From IMG/VR virus record IMGVR_UViG_3300045988_007535, positions 1-5,710 of that record: a DNA stretch of 5,710 nucleotides; one strand, 5' to 3'. The notes below the pieces were generated by a model. It saw only the letters and a list, made by a program, of their open reading frames with translations. It searched no databases and had not been told where the DNA came from. The position numbers were made by a program, and so were the translations under genes. Below are positions 1 to 5,710 of the stretch, in pieces (the first letter of the stretch is position 1; each line of letters opens with the position of its first letter). The DNA comes from a virus.

Positions 1-55
1 AAATCTGACCCTGTGGAAATCAGCCTAGTAGGCGATGCACCGGTATTTGGGTATA
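1..55. repeat. Terminal direct repeat, copy 1. Assembly overlap that marks a circular genome.
   Basis: AAATCTGACCCTGTGGAAATCAGCCTAGTAGGCGATGCACCGGTATTTGGGTATA at 1..55 is identical to 5656..5710. The offset of 5655 is divisible by 3, and the capsid reading frame continues across it. Confidence 0.95.
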
Positions 56-1002
56 GCACCATCCAAGATACCGCCAAAATAACAGATAAAATAATCCTGA
101 ACCAACCGTGGCCAGCAAACAGCACAACGGATTTTCTAAACACGGAAAAAGGGGGAAAACTGACAGGAAAAGGCGTACAGGATGGAGGCAACTACACTGC
201 AGAAGCATTCCTAAAAGCAGACCTCAGCAATGTTACAGGAATCAGCATTGCAGACCTACGCATGAGCATCGCACTGCAGCACATTTTCGAAGCCGATGCA
301 CGCAACGGCACGCGATACCGCGAGTTCCTTTCCGGCACATGGGGCGTGACAAGCCCGGACAGCCGTCTGCAGATTCCTGAGTACATCGGCGGACAGCGCA
401 TCCCAATCAACGTAAATCAGGTTGTACAGACAAGCCAAACGGACCCGACGACCGGACAGGCACTAGGCAATACGGCAGCATACAGCCTGACCACATGCAG
501 CAAGCAGATGGTGGACTATGCAGCAACTGAGTACGGCTTCATCATTGGTTTGGCGGTGGTACGAGTAGAACACAGCTACCAGCAGGGACTTGCGACCAAG
601 TGGACACGCGGCGGGCGGTTCACATACTACGACCCACGTCTGGCAGCACTGGGCGAACAGCCGGTGTACAACCGTGAAATCTATGCACAGGGCACAGCCG
701 AAGATAACGAAATCTTTGGCTACCAAGAGGCCTGGGCGGACTACCGCTACAAGCCTTCTTACGTAACCGGTGAAATGAGGTCTAACTACCAGACAAGCCT
801 TGACGCATGGCACTATGCAGACGATTATGACGCACTTCCGCGTCTCTCGGCAGAGTGGATTCAGGAAGGAACACAGAACATTGACAGAACAATTGCAGTA
901 ACAAGCGCAAAAAGCCATCAATTCTTGTGTGACTTCTACTTCACAGAAGATTGGTACCGCGAAATGCCTATTTACAGCATTCCCGGCATCGAAAGAATCT
1001 AA
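1..1002 (+). CDS. VP1: Major capsid protein VP1 (phiX174 F homologue), C-terminal part. Continues from 5014..5710 across the circular junction; stop TAA at 1000..1002.
   Basis: Frame 1 is open from base 1 (KSDPVEISLVGDAPVFGY...). The same peptide is encoded at 5656..5710, in frame with ATG 5014. The joined ORF is 1644 nt (547 aa), typical for Microviridae capsid proteins. The ORF-track start at 13 (GTG) is internal. Confidence 0.93.
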   Translation, partial: KSDPVEISLVGDAPVFGYSTIQDTAKITDKIILNQPWPANSTTDFLNTEKGGKLTGKGVQDGGNYTAEAFLKADLSNVTGISIADLRMSIALQHIFEADARNGTRYREFLSGTWGVTSPDSRLQIPEYIGGQRIPINVNQVVQTSQTDPTTGQALGNTAAYSLTTCSKQMVDYAATEYGFIIGLAVVRVEHSYQQGLATKWTRGGRFTYYDPRLAALGEQPVYNREIYAQGTAEDNEIFGYQEAWADYRYKPSYVTGEMRSNYQTSLDAWHYADDYDALPRLSAEWIQEGTQNIDRTIAVTSAKSHQFLCDFYFTEDWYREMPIYSIPGIERI

Positions 1003-1012
1003 GAAAGGAGGA

Positions 1013-1038
1013 AGCCCCGCAAAAGCGGGGCTATTTTT
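1013..1038 (+). terminator. Factor-independent terminator/attenuator between VP1 and VP2
   Basis: Perfect 8-bp GC-rich stem AGCCCCGC (1013..1020) / GCGGGGCT (1025..1032) with an AAAA loop, followed by ATTTTT (1033..1038). It starts 11 nt after the VP1 stop. Confidence 0.75.
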
Positions 1039-1040
1039 GA

Positions 1041-1898
1041 ATGGAGACATTATTAAAACTTTTGCCATCACTCATGCAAGGACTGAGCATGCTAACAGGC
1101 ATCATAACAAGCAGTAACCAGAGCGGCGCCAAGAACAGCCAAGGAGCCGGCAGCGAGAGCAGCACAGGCAGCGAGACCACAACCGGCAGCATAACAGGAC
1201 CACAACAGATAGGCGCAACACAAATCAGCACACCAACAGGCGTCACAACATTCGGCAACCAAAGCAGCGTAAACACCGCAAACGCACTGCAAATGATGAG
1301 CGGACTGCTGAGCAACCTCGCAAATGCTGGAAGCCAAGCAAGCGCCAAGAAGTACAACAGTGCAGAAGCGGCAGCAGAACGAGCGTTTCAAAAGGAAATG
1401 CGCGGGACAGCCTATCAGGACACCGTAAAGGACATGATCGCAGCGGGCATCAATCCTATCCTAGCAGCGACCAACGGCGCAACAAGCGCACCATCGGGAG
1501 CATCTGCAAGCATTGGAAGCCAACGTTATAACCAGCAGAGCGCACAGGCTGCAAGCGTATCCGCAATGTACGAATATGGCAACAACACGGCAGAGCTGGC
1601 AGACAAATACTTACAGCTGGCAAAACAGGCCACCAGCGCAAAACAATTTAAAAATGCGAAAAGCTGGGAACAGGCAGCGAGCGAGCTGGCAACCTCAAGC
1701 GCAAAACAGGCGCAACAGTACACCTATGCAGCTAGCAAATTAGGTGCAGGCCTTGCGGGAGCCGGCAAAGCAGCCAAAAAAGCAGCAGAAAAGGCTGGCA
1801 AAGCAGCCAAAGACACAGCTGGAAACTTCAAAAAATACAACCAAAGAGTACCAATCATGCCAAACATGGACGCATTCAACGCATACAGAGGAGACTAA
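1041..1898 (+). CDS. VP2: VP2 minor capsid / DNA pilot protein (phiX174 H analogue)
   Basis: 285-aa ORF directly downstream of the capsid gene. It has a hydrophobic N-terminus (METLLKLLPSLMQGLSMLTGII) and a long Ser/Thr/Gly/Gln-rich low-complexity segment. The block EMRGTAYQDTVKDMIAAGINPILAA matches the conserved (S/G)TAYQ...AG(L/I)NP.LA motif I recall from gokushovirus-type VP2 proteins. The tail is Lys/Ala-rich. Confidence 0.82.
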   Translation: METLLKLLPSLMQGLSMLTGIITSSNQSGAKNSQGAGSESSTGSETTTGSITGPQQIGATQISTPTGVTTFGNQSSVNTANALQMMSGLLSNLANAGSQASAKKYNSAEAAAERAFQKEMRGTAYQDTVKDMIAAGINPILAATNGATSAPSGASASIGSQRYNQQSAQAASVSAMYEYGNNTAELADKYLQLAKQATSAKQFKNAKSWEQAASELATSSAKQAQQYTYAASKLGAGLAGAGKAAKKAAEKAGKAAKDTAGNFKKYNQRVPIMPNMDAFNAYRGD

Positions 1899-1904
1899 GA
1901 AAAG

Positions 1905-1934
1905 GAGGGGGATGGCAAAACATCCCCCTTTTTT
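1905..1934 (+). terminator. Factor-independent terminator after VP2
   Basis: Stem GGGGGATG (1907..1914) / CATCCCCC (1921..1928), extendable by A1906-T1929, with loop GCAAAA. A run of six T follows (1929..1934). It begins 7 nt after the VP2 stop. Confidence 0.8.
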
Positions 1935-1961
1935 AGTAACAATAATCCAAAAAATAAAGAA

Positions 1962-2133
1962 TGTGGAAAACTTGAGTTTTCAACACTTTCAACAGGTTTT
2001 CAACAACAAGTTGCACAAAGAAATTCGTCAAAATGACGAACATTCAACAATTCAACAAGTTTTCAACAAAGTTTTCTACAGGCAAAAAGGCAATAAATAA
2101 ACGTAGTAACGTAAAAAAAACAAGTTTTCAACA
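1962..2133 (+). repeat. Iteron-like array of TTCAACA / GTTTTCAACA units in the VP2-rep intergenic region
   Basis: TTCAACA starts at 1979, 1988, 1999, 2043, 2051, 2062 and 2127. The extended form GTTTTCAACA starts at 1976, 1996, 2059 and 2124. The 14-mer ACAAGTTTTCAACA occurs at 2055..2068 and 2120..2133. The first unit has an inverted partner: TGTGGAAAAC(1962..1971)-TTGA-GTTTTCAACA(1976..1985), 9 of 10 positions complementary. Confidence 0.85.
2024..2040. promoter_or_regulatory. Perfect inverted repeat / hairpin between the two TTCAACA triplets
   Basis: TTCGTCA (2024..2030) - AAA - TGACGAA (2034..2040): 7-bp perfect stem with a 3-nt loop. It lies between the repeat cluster at 1979..2005 and the cluster at 2043..2068. 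Confidence 0.6.
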
Positions 2134-2194
2134 GTTTCCACGCTACTACTACTACGACTACAACAAGTTAATATAAAAAGAAAGCGAGGTGTCA

Positions 2195-2229
2195 ACCGGC
2201 ACAAGATAGACAAGGAGGCTTGTGCCGGT
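2195..2229 (+). promoter_or_regulatory. 11-bp perfect hairpin carrying the rep Shine-Dalgarno sequence in its loop
   Basis: ACCGGCACAAG (2195..2205) is the exact reverse complement of CTTGTGCCGGT (2219..2229). The 13-nt loop ATAGACAAGGAGG contains AAGGAGG (2212..2218). The 3' arm covers the GTG at 2222, and ATG 2237 lies 8 nt after the stem. Confidence 0.65.
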
Positions 2230-2236
2230 AACAAAA

Positions 2237-3226
2237 ATGCCATGTACAAAACCATTAGTATTTCAGATGGATACGAAAAAACCGAAACTGTGGGGAAGTC
2301 TGGAAAACCTATCAAAGCAAGAACTGCAAGCGAACATCATGGACGGAGTCAAAAAAGGAAAATACGCATTGTTACCATGCGGTAAATGCGAGTACTGCCG
2401 CAAACAGATGGCAGACCAATGGGCAACAAGAATAGAGCTGGAGGCCAAAGAGTGGGACGATGTGATTTTTCTGACGCTAACTTACGATGATGAGCACATA
2501 CCTTACGGCGAAATTATCAAAGGATACCAGAGCATCCAAAGCCAAACTGTAAGCAAACGAGACGTGCAGCTATTTATGAAACGTCTACGGAAAGCATACA
2601 AGAAGCCGATAAAATACTTTTTAGCGGCAGAATATGGCGACAGAACAAAAAGACCACACTATCATGCTATAGTATTCGGATTAAAGCCACCGGATGCACA
2701 ATGGTATAAAAACCAAAAAGGCAACAGCTATTTCAAAAGCGAGTGGCTACAAAAAATCTGGGGCAAAGGCATGATAGACTTTTCACCAGCACAGCCGGGT
2801 AGCTTTGCATACGTGGCACAATACGTCAACAAAAAAGCCATAGGTGCAGAGCAAGCGGCAAAATACTGGATGGAAGGCAGAGAGCCAGAGTTCCGAATCA
2901 TGTCGAAAGGCATCGGCGAAAAGTATCTGAACGAACACAAAGATGAAATCTTGAAAACAGATAGCATCATATGCGCAGGAGGGCGCGAGAAAAGGCCTCC
3001 ACGCTATTTTGATAAGATTCTAGATAAGGATACCAGCCAAGACACAGAAAACTATTTTAAGGCACATTCTGACGAGCTGAGAGAGGTTAGAGCCAGACGC
3101 AGACGCAGTGCGATACAAAGTTTAGTAAATCTCGAACAGTCTACAAGCGTGGATTATGAAACCTATCTAAACATTCAGAGGGAAAAGGACAAGCTAAAGC
3201 AAAAATGGCGTGAACCGAAAGCATGA
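2237..3226 (+). CDS. VP4: Replication initiation protein VP4 (HUH rolling-circle endonuclease, phiX174 A-like)
   Basis: All three RCR motifs are present: FLTLTYDD (motif 1, from about 2468), RPHYHAIVFG (HUH motif, His146 codon at 2657) and FAYVAQYVNKK (paired tyrosines YxxxY, codons at 2810 and 2822). The last is almost identical to YVAKYVNK, as I recall the phiX174 A sequence. A Cys cluster PCGKCEYCR is typical of microvirus VP4. The ORF is open from GTG 2222. I prefer ATG 2237 because it gives the MPCxxP N-terminus common in VP4 proteins, but the start is ambiguous. Confidence 0.93.
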   Translation: MPCTKPLVFQMDTKKPKLWGSLENLSKQELQANIMDGVKKGKYALLPCGKCEYCRKQMADQWATRIELEAKEWDDVIFLTLTYDDEHIPYGEIIKGYQSIQSQTVSKRDVQLFMKRLRKAYKKPIKYFLAAEYGDRTKRPHYHAIVFGLKPPDAQWYKNQKGNSYFKSEWLQKIWGKGMIDFSPAQPGSFAYVAQYVNKKAIGAEQAAKYWMEGREPEFRIMSKGIGEKYLNEHKDEILKTDSIICAGGREKRPPRYFDKILDKDTSQDTENYFKAHSDELREVRARRRRSAIQSLVNLEQSTSVDYETYLNIQREKDKLKQKWREPKA

Positions 3227-3233
3227 CGCGCAC

Positions 3234-3303
3234 AGCGCTTATAATGAATGGATTAGCCGCATTCCGCTTTAGCTCCATGCGGCAGAGCGCTAAAGCGCTT
3301 TTC
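3234..3303 (+). other. Structured non-coding segment after rep, with nested palindromes. Possibly a weak terminator and/or an ssDNA structural element.
   Basis: Three copies of the self-complementary hexamer AGCGCT (3234..3239, 3286..3291, 3294..3299). A 7-bp hairpin GCCGCAT (3256..3262) / ATGCGGC (3277..3283) has a 14-nt loop. A short hairpin AGCGC-TAAA-GCGCT (3286..3299) is followed by TTTC. Confidence 0.4.
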
Positions 3304-3358
3304 AAACCAAAGGAGCAAAACCAGCAACTAATATATCAATCTATTTTCTTAAAAAACC

Positions 3359-3387
3359 TTGACTTTTTCCCAAAAAAATGGTAGAAT
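3359..3387 (+). promoter_or_regulatory. Strong sigma70/sigmaA-type promoter with extended -10
   Basis: -35 TTGACT (3359..3364), a 17-nt spacer, TG at 3379..3380, and -10 TAGAAT (3382..3387). This gives TGgTAGAAT, an extended -10. An A/T-rich UP-like tract (TATTTTCTTAAAAAA) lies just upstream. The predicted start near 3394 is immediately before AGAAAGGAGG (3396..3405). Confidence 0.75.
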
Positions 3388-3413
3388 ATAATCACAGAAA
3401 GGAGGCCACAAAA

Positions 3414-3596
3414 ATGGCTGAACAAAAAAAATACAAGTTCTTAGTAGTGGTAAACCACGACGACTGCACCAACACAAAAGAGCTGCAAAGCATGACGACA
3501 AAAGAAGCAAGAAATTACGCAAGTAAACTTGCACAATTACGCGGGATTGATTCTGTTGAACTTTACCGTATTGACAAAACAGAGATTTTTGCATAA
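3414..3596 (+). CDS. Hypothetical 60-aa protein, first gene after the strong promoter
   Basis: ATG 3414 lies 8 nt after AGAAAGGAGG (3396..3405), so the ORF-track start at 3378 would be upstream of the predicted transcript start. Sequence: MAEQKKYKFLVVVNHDDCTNTKELQSMTTKEARNYASKLAQLRGIDSVELYRIDKTEIFA. I recognise no family motif. A terminator follows immediately. Confidence 0.7.
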   Translation: MAEQKKYKFLVVVNHDDCTNTKELQSMTTKEARNYASKLAQLRGIDSVELYRIDKTEIFA

Positions 3597-3600
3597 AATA

Positions 3601-3640
3601 AAGACAGACGACCAATATTGGTTGTCTGTCTTTTATATTT
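3601..3640 (+). terminator. Factor-independent terminator after the 60-aa ORF
   Basis: 14-bp stem AAGACAGACGACCA (3601..3614) / TGGTTGTCTGTCTT (3619..3632) with one G-U pair and loop ATAT, followed by a T-rich tract TTTTATATTT overlapping the 3' arm. Confidence 0.8.
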
Positions 3641-3660
3641 AAAAGAAAGGAGATAACACA

Positions 3661-3777
3661 ATGGCACACAGAAGCGGAGCGGGTCGAGGAGACCAGAAAC
3701 GTTTTACCCAGACTGCAAAGCGGGTAAAAAACATCAACGTCCGGCCAAAGGTCAGCCGGGGCGGCATCAGGCTGTAG
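3661..3777 (+). CDS. Small basic DNA-binding/packaging protein candidate (phiX174 J / gokushovirus ORF8-VP8 analogue), 38 aa. Absent from the ORF track because it is shorter than 60 aa.
   Basis: ATG 3661 lies 8 nt after AGAAAGGAG (3644..3652); stop TAG at 3775..3777. Translation: MAHRSGAGRGDQKRFTQTAKRVKNINVRPKVSRGGIRL, with 10 Arg/Lys in 38 residues. From memory, the C-terminal RGGIRL resembles the RGG(I/R)RF ending of the ORF8 proteins of Chlamydia phages and SpV4. Confidence 0.6.
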   Translation: MAHRSGAGRGDQKRFTQTAKRVKNINVRPKVSRGGIRL

Positions 3778-3812
3778 CTGGACAAAGGCCAAAAAAGAAA
3801 GGAGGTGGTTTA

Positions 3813-3923
3813 ATGGCACTGATTAAGGTCAAGGACGTCAAAGAAGCGATTGAACTGATGATGAGCATTCTGGAAAAGCTTGACGAGATTTACCACGCAC
3901 TGAAGAACGCGGGGAAGGAGTAA
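3813..3923 (+). CDS. Hypothetical 36-aa helical peptide, translationally coupled to the peptidase gene. Absent from the ORF track.
   Basis: ATG 3813 lies 7 nt after GGAGG within AGAAAGGAGGTG (3796..3807), the longest SD in the window. Stop TAA is at 3921..3923, 2 nt before the next ATG. Translation: MALIKVKDVKEAIELMMSILEKLDEIYHALKNAGKE. There is no transmembrane stretch, and the residue periodicity suggests an amphipathic helix. Confidence 0.5.
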   Translation: MALIKVKDVKEAIELMMSILEKLDEIYHALKNAGKE

Positions 3924-3925
3924 AG

Positions 3926-4318
3926 ATGCTGCATGAATACAGCTTATTCAATCAGGGCACCCACCAAGTAAGCGAACACTTCAAAGTGAAAGAATTTGCA
4001 CAAAAAGACTACCGGTGTGATAAAATTCTCATTGAATCAGAACTAGTAAAAGTGCTGGAAGATGTAAGAACACACTTCAATATGCCGGTGATCATCACCA
4101 GCGGATACAGAACACCAGAATATAACAAGAAAATCGGCGGTGTAAAAAACTCACAACACACAAAGGGCACAGCAGCCGACATCAAAGTGAAAACGGTGCT
4201 AGCAAGCGAAGTGCAAAGATACCTAAACCGCAAATATCCAGACAAATACGGAATAGGCAGATACAAAAACTTTACGCACATAGACGTAAGGGAAAAGAAA
4301 GCTCGATGGAGGGGCTAA
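3926..4318 (+). CDS. Zinc peptidase of the M15 / LAS superfamily (D-Ala-D-Ala carboxypeptidase-like cell-wall peptidase; endolysin candidate)
   Basis: 130 aa. Contains SGYRTPEYNKKIGGVKNSQHTKGTAADI and NFTHIDVR. These follow the SGYR....N...S.H..G.A.D and .H.D pattern of peptidase M15A/M15_3-type enzymes. Predicted Zn ligands are His78 (codon 4157..4159), Asp85 and His118. SD AAGGAG (3915..3920) lies 5 nt before the ATG. No signal peptide or transmembrane segment is evident. Confidence 0.85.
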   Translation: MLHEYSLFNQGTHQVSEHFKVKEFAQKDYRCDKILIESELVKVLEDVRTHFNMPVIITSGYRTPEYNKKIGGVKNSQHTKGTAADIKVKTVLASEVQRYLNRKYPDKYGIGRYKNFTHIDVREKKARWRG

Positions 4319-4321
4319 AAC

Positions 4322-4576
4322 ATGAAAATGACGTTCTATTGCTTCAAAGACAGCGTAACCAACGGATACAGCAATCCATTCTTACAGCTCAACAGAGCAC
4401 AGGCAATCCGAACGGCAAAATGGAAAGCCAACGAAAGCAAGGTAAACGAAATCGAAGACATCAGCCTAGTTGAACTGGGCGAATTCGACACCGAAACGGG
4501 CGAAATGTACGGCGCAGACCCGAAACAGCTGTGCAGCCTGACAGACCTCAAGGAGAAATTTGATGCTAAATCCTGA
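4322..4576 (+). CDS. Small non-structural protein, VP5-like (gokushovirus ORF5 family candidate)
   Basis: 84 aa, with GGAGG (4308..4312) 9 nt upstream. The N-terminal F.CFKDSVTNGYSNPF and central LVELGEFDTETGEMY resemble the F..D......PF ... L..(L/I)G.FD..TG pattern I recall for microvirus VP5 proteins. Size and position (before VP3 and VP1) fit. This is a memory-based assignment, not a search result. Confidence 0.55.
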   Translation: MKMTFYCFKDSVTNGYSNPFLQLNRAQAIRTAKWKANESKVNEIEDISLVELGEFDTETGEMYGADPKQLCSLTDLKEKFDAKS

Positions 4577-4988
4577 CGTAATGGTACGCTACTACGGGAT
4601 GCCAACTGAAAGAGTAGCAAACAATCCGGGCAGCAAGACTGCACCAACGTGGAAAGCAGTAAAGCGACCGAACGGCACAACCGACTACATTCAGCAGCCG
4701 GATGAGAACACATACGAGAAAATCCAGCGAGCCGGCGAGGGCTACGACCTTGCAAGCGCAATCGCAAGACTGGAAGCTGGGGACACATCCATCAAGGCAA
4801 AGAGCATGGTATACACCGAAGGAACGGACCTTGAAAATCTGCCGAAGGATATCATGACGATGCACGAAAAGGCCGAGGCAGCAGCCGAAACAATGGAACA
4901 GCTGAAACAGGTGCAACAGACCGAACAGCCGAAGCCGAAAGAGGAAGAAAAAAAGGAGGAGGTGAAGGAAAACGAACCGAAACAGTGA
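4563..4988 (+). CDS. Internal scaffolding protein candidate (VP3-like) with a Lys/Glu-rich C-terminal tail
   Basis: ATG 4563 lies 7 nt after AAGGAG (4550..4555) and overlaps the upstream gene by 14 nt. The TTG at 4560 is the ORF-track start. The ORF is 141 aa and sits immediately upstream of VP1. The segment MVYTEGTDLENLPKDIMTMHEKAEAAAETMEQL loosely parallels the VYGDFS..P.....A......A...F..LP region of gokushovirus VP3. The tail is QPKPKEEEKKEEVKENEPKQ. Confidence 0.5.
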   Translation: MLNPDVMVRYYGMPTERVANNPGSKTAPTWKAVKRPNGTTDYIQQPDENTYEKIQRAGEGYDLASAIARLEAGDTSIKAKSMVYTEGTDLENLPKDIMTMHEKAEAAAETMEQLKQVQQTEQPKPKEEEKKEEVKENEPKQ

Positions 4989-5013
4989 GAACCATTTCGC
5001 GCAAGTGCCACGA

Positions 5014-5710
5014 ATGGAACGACCGCGAAGCAAATTTGACAGAAGTCACCAACTGTTGACGACCATCAACGAAGGTGACCTAGTGCCCATCTACTGCGAT
5101 GAAGTAATTCCGGGCGATACAGCAAAAGTACGCCTGAACGGGCTTATTCGTATGAGCACACCCATCTATCCTATCATGGATAACTGCTACATGGATACCT
5201 ATTTCTTCTTTGTTCCGTGCCGTCTGTTGTGGGAACACTGGGAGAACATGTTCGGCGAAAACGATACGGACTACTGGGCAGAAAAGACCGAATACAGCAC
5301 GCCGACTTGCACAATCGGCGGCACATCCGGTCTGAATAATGGCACCATCGGAGACTACTTCGGATTGCCGACCGGAGTCGAAAAAGCAATCAAAGTCAAC
5401 GCACTTCCGGCACGCGCATACGCCATGATTTACAACGAGTGGTTCCGTGACGAAAACCTCGAAGCACCGCTAATGCTGGGATACAAAAAAACAGACGAAG
5501 GGGGAACGCAAAAAGACCCAAAAAGCATCGGGGGAATATACGCAAACGACCCGAATCACACAACTGAAACGGTTGAAGCCTCATTTTACGGCTTAAAACC
5601 GGCAAAAGCGGGCAAGTTCCACGACTACTTCACCAGCTGCTTACCGAGTCCGTTGAAATCTGACCCTGTGGAAATCAGCCTAGTAGGCGATGCACCGGTA
5701 TTTGGGTATA
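5014..5710 (+). CDS. VP1: Major capsid protein VP1 (F homologue), N-terminal part. Runs off the window end and continues at base 56 (bases 5656..5710 equal 1..55).
   Basis: My translation from ATG 5014 has no stop up to the window end: MERPRSKFDRSHQLLTTINEGDLVPIYCDEVIPGDTAKVRLNGLIRMSTPIYPIMDNCYMDTYFFFVPCRLLWEHWENMFGEN...NALPARAYAMIYNEWFRDENL...KFHDYFTSCLPSPLKSDPVEISLVG. The blocks F(D/N)(L/R)SH, G.L.P....EV.PGD, LP.RAY..I.NE..RD.NL and DYFT..LP are hallmark Microviridae capsid motifs. The ORF track misses it because no stop lies inside the window. Confidence 0.93.
   Translation, partial: MERPRSKFDRSHQLLTTINEGDLVPIYCDEVIPGDTAKVRLNGLIRMSTPIYPIMDNCYMDTYFFFVPCRLLWEHWENMFGENDTDYWAEKTEYSTPTCTIGGTSGLNNGTIGDYFGLPTGVEKAIKVNALPARAYAMIYNEWFRDENLEAPLMLGYKKTDEGGTQKDPKSIGGIYANDPNHTTETVEASFYGLKPAKAGKFHDYFTSCLPSPLKSDPVEISLVGDAPVFGY
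5656..5710. repeat. Terminal direct repeat, copy 2 (identical to 1..55)
   Basis: Exact 55-nt identity with the window start. Confidence 0.95.

Follow-up and report, generated by a model that had tools for sequence, protein, structure and literature searches.

A putative LAS/M15 endolysin and its 36-codon neighbour gene in a human-gut-type gokushovirus genome

Genes for M15_3 peptidases were described in 11 human-associated Microviridae, five of which were gokushoviruses, and at least two horizontal acquisitions of these genes were reported (Roux et al., 2012, PMC3394797). The homologues were located next to holins in prophages, and the proposed role was the dissolution of the cell's wall when infection ends, in contrast to phiX174 and to the holin–endolysin systems (PMC3394797). 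Peptidases were also described as lysis-associated accessory genes of microviruses, which are exchanged between distant families (Kirchberger et al., 2022, PMC9239249), and M15 peptidases are present in isolated microviruses of Bacteroides, Roseobacter and others (PMC11499846 among the sources). The same lytic role was proposed in these reports (PMC3394797, PMC9239249, PMC11499846). The window analysed here is a stretch of viral DNA of 5,710 nucleotides (nt), i.e., positions 1 to 5,710 of the IMG/VR record IMGVR_UViG_3300045988_007535. It carries a gene for a 130-residue peptidase of this kind (3926–4318), directly preceded by a gene of 36 codons (3813–3923). The captured LAS/M15 endolysin domain is probably the murein-degrading lysis enzyme of the phage, with the 36-codon gene being an independent gene of the gokushovirus backbone.

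The M15_3 genes of Gokushovirinae and Alpavirinae (PMC3394797) had the Pfam family, the habitat and the inference in common with this locus, namely, capture, a putative endolysin and no holin. In GenBank, the gene is annotated as 'peptidase M15' in KX513876 and KX513864. The peptidase of KX513864 was 80% identical to that of the window and occupied the same slot, whereas KX513876 carried another allele in another slot (slot B, described below), which was 40% identical; otherwise, nothing substantive set the window, with its slot-A allele, apart from these systems. A gokushovirus M15 peptidase without a holin is therefore already known from the literature and from GenBank annotation, and the window adds a further member to a lineage that has been sampled well. 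An earlier note, which was made from the DNA letters alone, had implied novelty; this did not hold, because these peptidases were described and proposed as endolysins in 2012 (PMC3394797) and are annotated in the nearest GenBank genomes. Its statement that no function had been shown for the microvirus peptidases was partly outdated, since Gp7 of Ebor was verified biochemically in 2025, although apparently as another type of enzyme (PMC11980548).

Two other systems were close enough for comparison. Ebor (proposed 'Tainavirinae') likewise encodes a wall-degrading enzyme, the peptidoglycan hydrolase Gp7, whose activity was verified by zymogram (PMC11980548). Gp7 is called a lysozyme in the methods of that report, its best HHpred match was 6SSC, and Ebor also has a membrane protein of 45 residues (PMC11980548). 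The other system is that of the single-gene lysis proteins, with protein E of phiX174, which is likewise a small single-stranded DNA phage without a holin–endolysin pair. Protein E is an overprinted membrane protein that inhibits MraY, whereas the window had no such transmembrane open reading frame (ORF) and encoded an enzyme of a muralytic family instead.

The peptidase matched the Pfam profile Peptidase_M15_3 (PF08291, clan MD) with 99 bits, whereas the cut-off was 23.2 (E = 2e-28), and the match spanned profile positions 2–108 of 108. A second match was found with PF05951 (29.5; cut-off 27), and PHROG 894, named 'endolysin', matched with E = 5e-45. The motifs of the peptidase were S59-G-Y-R62, S76-Q-H78-x6-D85 and T117-H118-I-D120. 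R62, S76, H78, D85, H118 and D120 were invariant in an alignment of 24 homologues, with identities down to 53%. Moreover, in the Streptomyces albus Zn DD-peptidase (chain 1LBU), the counterparts of H78 and D85 in the alignment were residues 154 and 161, which are zinc ligands; H78, D85 and H118 are the predicted metal ligands of the phage enzyme. The M15/LAS motifs, the positions of both genes and the 2-nt gap between them had all been given in the earlier note, and they were confirmed here, the motifs by Pfam, by PHROG and by the three invariant ligand residues.

A PDB sequence search with the peptidase gave one weak match (1LBU, E = 0.008), and a comparison of folds was therefore needed. The AlphaFold2 model had a predicted local distance difference test (pLDDT) score of 93.5 and a predicted template modelling (TM) score of 0.87. 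The best PDB matches of this model in Foldseek were 1LBU, VanY, ChiX, hedgehog N-domains and LdcB. The Foldseek probability was mostly 0.96–1.0; for 1LBU, VanY and ChiX, it was at least 0.99 except in the case of a single VanY chain (0.91), and LdcB had 0.75. The E-values were modest (best about 1e-3), and the TM-scores were 0.41–0.56. The model thus has the predicted fold of LAS enzymes and hedgehog N-domains, and both checks that the earlier note had suggested, the Pfam M15 profile search and the structural comparison, led to this group of enzymes. The fold and the H-x6-D...H metal site were common to the phage enzyme, the S. albus Zn D-Ala-D-Ala carboxypeptidase (1LBU), VanY and the Serratia L-Ala-D-Glu endopeptidase ChiX (5OPZ). 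However, the phage enzyme was only 16–20% identical to 1LBU, VanY and ChiX, with TM-scores of 0.46–0.56. Only sub-threshold matches were obtained in NCBIfam (MepK with 39.8 bits against a cut-off of 185; VanXY with E = 0.012), and the bond specificity was therefore not assignable. According to the profile matches and the model, the 130-residue product is a single-domain LAS/M15 zinc peptidase consisting of the bare catalytic domain. The gene was under purifying selection, with a ratio of nonsynonymous to synonymous substitution rates (dN/dS) of 0.12. More than 100 clusters in the protein database were 73–98% identical to the peptidase, and the longer contigs among them were mostly about 5.5–5.9 kb.

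The origin of the gene was explored through its relatives outside the microviruses. The best non-microviral matches were the endolysins of SP6-like and related podophages (Proteus, Salmonella, Klebsiella and E. coli), with 50–56% identity. The best match with a cellular context was a 61% identical protein in a metagenome-assembled genome (MAG) of Oscillibacter, which lay in a prophage with an integrase; a Phage_r1t_holin gene upstream overlapped the gene of this M15 homologue. Furthermore, in 29 tailed-phage contigs, small ORFs with many transmembrane segments were regular neighbours of the M15 homologues. The cassettes of the SP6-like phages and the Oscillibacter prophage thus resembled the microvirus gene in their identity of 50–61%, in the identical catalytic residues and in the same single-domain size. 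They differed in their surroundings, since they carried an adjacent, often overlapping, transmembrane holin gene and frequently spanin-like genes, whereas the microvirus had neither kind of neighbour. An origin from the holin–endolysin cassettes of tailed phages or prophages was shown at the level of sequence similarity and gene context. No microvirus-specific extension or substitution was found in the peptidase relative to its tailed-phage and prophage homologues; hence, the simplest reading is that of an endolysin captured without its holin.

These affinities were split between the Oscillibacter prophage and the enterobacterial podophages, and they were therefore uninformative on the host. 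No integrated copy was found in a scan of 185,579 genomes with VP1, in which the single match was a free contig (CAVKUS010000079.1). This contig of 5739 nt was a gokushovirus with a VP1 82% identical to that of the window, binned in the MAG of 'Bacteroides sp. CAG:545'. It was a whole viral genome and not a prophage; therefore, the bin says nothing about the host.

The hydrophobicity of all ORFs of at least 20 residues was evaluated in the three plus-strand frames of the circularised genome, and a Kyte–Doolittle mean of 1.6 over 19 residues was the cut-off for a transmembrane segment. No holin-like ORF was found among them, the highest mean being 1.44 at the N-terminus of VP2. An overprinted transmembrane ORF of the phiX174 E type was also not found in these frames. 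The peptidase itself had no signal or signal-arrest-release (SAR) segment; its N-terminus (MLHEYSLFNQGTHQVSEHFK) was polar, and its highest mean was 0.68. The earlier note had said the same of the missing holin and of the peptidase, and these values bore it out. The canonical cassette, with a small transmembrane protein beside the endolysin, was not present in the window. Moreover, no conserved transmembrane ORF was found across 111 M15-bearing gokushovirus genomes, where five sporadic, non-syntenic ORFs alone reached 1.6. Lacking a holin is therefore a feature of the clade as a whole and not a peculiarity of one genome, and this clade-wide result is a modest by-product of the comparison.

The position of the peptidase gene was compared in 75 close relatives fetched via VP5, in 35 more genomes fetched via the small ORF and in 8 GenBank records; genomes of this set are denoted by L numbers. 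In each of the close relatives, with a VP4 at least 65% identical, a single M15 gene occupied either of two slots. Slot A lay between the 36-codon gene and VP5 and held the allele of the window (25 genomes). Slot B lay between VP4 and the ORF8-like gene (3378–3660 in the window) and held the other allele, 40–44% identical to that of the window (50 genomes). Exactly one M15 ORF was detected in 111 of 126 related genomes in a hidden Markov model (HMM) scan. The same scan gave no genome with both slots filled, as two apparent doubles were split ORFs at neighbouring coordinates. A single copy was kept and the two slots were never filled together, which speaks for a functional equivalence of the two alleles and for a need of one of them. 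The occurrence of such non-orthologous M15 alleles in alternative, mutually exclusive slots of otherwise near-identical genomes is a modest addition to what was described before.

The genome L005 illustrated this arrangement, since its VP4 and VP5 were 97% identical to those of the window and yet it carried the slot-B allele. When the junctions of the window, L006 and L032 were aligned to those of L005, L001, L075 and L046, the peptidase gene of the window was seen to be a clean insertion of about 395 nt in a 13-nt spacer (...GAGTAAAGGAGAAAAAACATG...) between the 36-codon gene and VP5. The remaining gaps were 2 nt upstream, where the stop codon of the 36-codon gene ended at 3923 and the ATG of the peptidase gene began at 3926, and 3 nt downstream. 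The tight spacing of the two genes was thus explained by the landing of the cassette in the 13-nt spacer of a compact genome.

Several observations accompanied this comparison. The pattern of slots A and B in near-identical genomes looks like the repeated capture or replacement of a required function. In two IMG/VR genomes of 5.2–5.4 kb (L125 and L129), the M15b gene was reduced to its C-terminal 40–64 residues, with the first zinc ligand gone, and the adjoining small ORF was intact; these genomes may be natural peptidase-loss variants or assembly artefacts. In L068 (IMGVR_UViG_3300045988_015275), the region of about 1903–2805 held M15b, the small ORF, a 75-residue helical ORF and ORF8. This genome of the window's clade had the gene order of a distant clade (VP4 about 37% identical) and is an apparent inter-clade recombinant, a pattern that fits the exchange reported by Kirchberger et al. 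(2022).

The 36-codon gene was evaluated in the same manner. Of the 75 close genomes tabulated, one of which was the window, 74 had the gene, and its strong Shine–Dalgarno (SD) sequence was conserved; in the window, this sequence (AAAGGAGGTGG) was the longest anti-SD match of the nine gene starts inspected. The dN/dS was about 0.08 (dN 0.09 and dS about 1.1). Among 82 distinct nucleotide versions, the entropy of the third codon position was 0.99, whereas those of the first and second positions were 0.35 and 0.15, respectively. Between clades, the identity of the peptide family was about 60–75%, compared with 40–49% for VP1, and its conservation exceeded those of VP1 and VP4. In every case, the gene lay in the small-gene block that surrounds the ORF8-like gene. 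Judged by its conservation, the 36-codon ORF was shown to be a real and strongly constrained gene of the gokushovirus backbone.

The product was predicted to be a single helix (residues 2–34, pLDDT 87). The peptide of the window had a hydrophobic moment of 0.57 and a net charge of -1, and the family had moments of 0.52–0.64, a perfect a/d heptad pattern and net charges from -1 to -6. It was amphipathic and had the strongest SD, as the earlier note had said. As it was anionic, heptad-patterned and without a transmembrane segment, it was assigned to the acidic coiled-coil-type helices and not to the cationic membrane-lytic peptides or the transmembrane proteins. No significant match for the peptide was found in Pfam, PHROG or NCBIfam. 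A phmmer search of 1.84 billion representative proteins gave 22 representative clusters of relatives, all of which were stand-alone proteins of 30–79 residues, and no fusion of the family was found in this search. In 32 GenBank microvirus records with the gene, it was an annotated feature of its own in none; 28 records were blank under the match, and 4 had an overlapping feature only (peptidase M15, VP5, similar to VP5 and similar to hypothetical protein). A strongly conserved family of small genes that is almost always unannotated in public records is a further modest addition; like the two alternative slots, it would be of use in planning work on gokushovirus lysis.

A lytic role is the best reading for the peptidase, given that its nearest non-microviral relatives are endolysins beside holins and that a single copy was kept under purifying selection; a lytic role had been among the options of the earlier note. 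The peptidase would degrade murein to release the progeny. The 36-codon gene would lie close to it through the landing site of the cassette and the compaction of the genome, and not through a dedicated partnership. If the peptidase is the lysis effector, then the gut gokushoviruses achieved lysis with a borrowed endolysin but not its holin. Several points weigh against the reading as a whole. A cytoplasmic endolysin without an export route is an incomplete lysis mechanism in which one essential step is unexplained; the crossing of the inner membrane by the enzyme is a mechanistic gap that has been recognised since 2012. Most likely, the enzyme would leak out where another viral product, e.g., the hydrophobic N-terminus of VP2, has damaged the membrane, and the collapse of the infected cell may be an alternative cause of the leakage. 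The second point came from a distant clade (VP4 36–39% identical), where the small gene started 2–5 nt after the stop codon of M15b in 30 of 33 genomes, which may be taken as linkage. Thirdly, every genome of the window's own clade pairs the small gene with a peptidase, so that a joint function is possible there. Lastly, the genomes that have the small gene and no M15 gene belong to a different clade (VP4 33–35% identical to that of the window).

The last three points bear on the proposal that the two genes form a two-part lysis module, in which the 36-residue peptide is translationally coupled to the peptidase and serves as its partner, whether by aiding its export, by acting on the membrane or by regulating the timing. 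The earlier note had offered this option, the single element of the finding that might have been new. The 2-nt gap and the location of the peptidase SD inside the small gene are in favour of such a module, as are the strength and conservation of the SD of the small gene itself, its closeness to M15b in the distant clade and its high identity between clades with much more divergent VP1 proteins. However, in the 50 slot-B genomes (of 75 genomes in the window's clade), the small gene stayed directly ahead of VP5, and ORF8 separated it from the peptidase. The small gene also occurred in complete genomes without M15. A third clade contained at least five complete circular genomes of 5.2–5.5 kb (KT264799, MG945157, MG945423, MG945391 and MG945135), in which a 59–75% identical homologue adjoined ORF8 and no M15 gene was found by HMM or tblastn. 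In the comparison set, L146 and L149–L153 had the small gene without any M15 gene. The small gene remained intact beside the shortened M15b in L125 and L129.

The tailed phages argued in the same direction, because no homologue of the small gene adjoined their M15 genes or those of the prophages, which use real holins. Against 5819 ORFs of these loci, the best E-value of the small-gene family HMM was 1.8. A two-gene cassette shared with tailed phages had been suggested by weak tblastn matches (E = 0.06–0.5) just upstream of M15 in four contigs. It was rejected, since the best HMM match, with the E-value above, lay elsewhere, and the upstream ORFs in those contigs were ordinary transmembrane holin-like proteins. 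Moreover, the anionic, heptad-patterned helix of the peptide fits a predicted protein-binding coiled coil better than a membrane-lytic peptide. The dS and dN values of the gene point to old purifying selection and not to a recent co-transfer with the peptidase. The block consists of two to four small genes, and hence the adjacency of the small gene and the peptidase is expected by chance. A dedicated helper gene would be expected to occur and travel together with its endolysin gene, and the 36-codon gene was not found to do so. Accordingly, the adjacency in the distant clade is read as that of a strongly constrained backbone gene whose short block also receives the peptidase cassettes. A simple lack of linkage was challenged by the distant clade, and the M15-less genomes resolved this conflict, although a residual doubt stays. 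The peptide is thus unlikely to be a lysis partner of the peptidase. Another proposal, equally unlikely, concerns the whole clade of gut gokushoviruses (111 genomes), with its single M15 peptidase per genome and no conserved membrane protein. Here, lysis would be truly holin-independent, either through the action of the peptidase on cytoplasmic murein precursors or with VP2 as the membrane lesion, and the 36-residue coiled-coil peptide, whose conservation across three clades exceeds that of the capsid protein, could separately be a key factor of gokushovirus biology, with a conceivable part in the timing of lysis or in a partnership with the DNA-binding protein ORF8.

Some phages carry virion-associated murein hydrolases, and the peptidase could similarly be an entry enzyme, packaged in or associated with the virion, that opens the wall locally at the delivery of the DNA. 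The absence of a holin would pose no problem for an enzyme acting from outside. The peptidoglycan hydrolase Gp7 of Ebor was detected in virions, at trace level only (PMC11980548). However, all close homologues with a known context sit in lysis cassettes beside holins, and they are neither fused to structural genes nor located beside them. In addition, the bare catalytic domain of the window has no capsid-binding extension, and gokushoviruses without a peptidase live in the same habitat. An entry function is therefore considered improbable.

It is very unlikely that the peptidase lyses the cell from the cytoplasm without a holin, by cleaving the stem peptide of murein precursors, whether soluble or lipid-linked, or by otherwise blocking wall synthesis like the 'protein antibiotics' of other small phages: the missing conserved transmembrane ORF in the 111 peptidase-bearing genomes, the missing signal or SAR segment, the weak VanXY match and the existence of cytoplasmic precursor-cleaving members of the M15 family, e.g., VanX, are in favour, but the enzyme is 50–61% identical to holin-dependent endolysins, with the same conserved residues and no microvirus-specific change, and those homologues evidently do not lyse from inside, as their holins would otherwise be dispensable.

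The endolysin reading is set in the genome map of Table 1. The first 55 nt of the window (1–55) were identical to the last 55 nt (5656–5710); hence, the genome is circular and complete, with a length of 5655 nt. All genes of the circular genome lay on the plus strand. The VP1–VP5 set, the single coding strand and a circular genome within about 4.5–6 kb were those of Gokushovirinae. GenBank gokushoviruses had 77–88% nucleotide identity to the window, and the closest GenBank genome was Human gut gokushovirus KX513876, with 88% identity across 83% of the window. By its gene content and similarity, the window is the complete genome of a human-gut-type gokushovirus. The 38-residue ORF8-like protein was 89–100% identical in all close relatives and was a conserved neighbour of the 36-codon gene.

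Table 1. Positions of genes and other features in the 5,710-nt window.
Feature	Position	Strand	Match or remark
VP1 major capsid protein, 547 residues	5014 across the junction to 1002	+	Phage_F, E = 4e-88
VP2 pilot protein	1041..1898	+	phrog_18604; residues 4-22 are the most hydrophobic plus-strand segment
VP4 replication initiator	2222-3226	+	Rep match
72-residue ORF	3378..3596	+	region where sister genomes hold the alternative M15 allele (slot B)
Promoter-like site TTGACA-17-TAAAAT, then 15-bp hairpin and T-rich tail	3571..3633	+	consensus scan only
38-residue basic protein, probably ORF8/VP8-type DNA-binding	3661..3777	+	phrog_10695, E = 4e-6
Shine–Dalgarno AAAGGAGGTGG of the 36-codon gene	3798..3808	+	4 nt before ATG; AGGAGGTG core 5 nt away
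36-codon gene	3813..3923	+	gokushovirus backbone
Shine–Dalgarno GGAAGGAG of the peptidase gene	3913..3920	+	within the last codons of the 36-codon gene
Inserted peptidase cassette, approximate limits	3924..4319	+	junction alignment
Peptidase gene, 130 residues, putative endolysin	3926..4318	+	LAS/M15, Peptidase_M15_3
VP5 (Phage_ORF5)	4322..4576	+	Pfam PF20577, E = 8e-15
VP3 scaffold	4560-4988	+	Chlamy_scaf match, weak

Further observations were made outside the two genes. The promoter-like site between the 72-residue ORF and the ORF8-like gene (3571–3633) agreed with a sigma-70-like consensus at 11 of 12 positions. A perfect 15-bp hairpin with a T-rich tail directly followed this site, and it may be a terminator, an RNA-stability element or a replication-related hairpin. 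A hydrophobic antisense ORF of 156 residues (3349–3819, minus strand) spanned the 72-residue ORF and the ORF8-like gene. As its open length varied from 42 to 235 residues among 75 relatives, it was treated as spurious and is unlikely to be a gene. It recalls the 153-codon ORF on the complementary strand beside a peptidase gene that was noted by Roux et al. (2012, PMC3394797).

In an M15-less gokushovirus (L152, MG945382.1), an ORF of 33 residues was located between ORF8 and VP5 (2289–2390 relative to the VP4 start). It had a transmembrane-like core, MIEMASAITVICCGVAIIMMAVRMMMDKNKEDK, and is a candidate for a single-gene lysis or holin-like protein. The 72-residue ORF (3378–3596) and its counterparts in L001 (1168–1374), L113 and L146 encoded small proteins of one family with loose conservation, located between VP4 and the small-gene block. 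Their C-terminal motif was of the type ...A(K/R)xYAxxxxG(I/L)xSxxLY(R/K)I(D/E)..., and the family was present in genomes both with and without M15.

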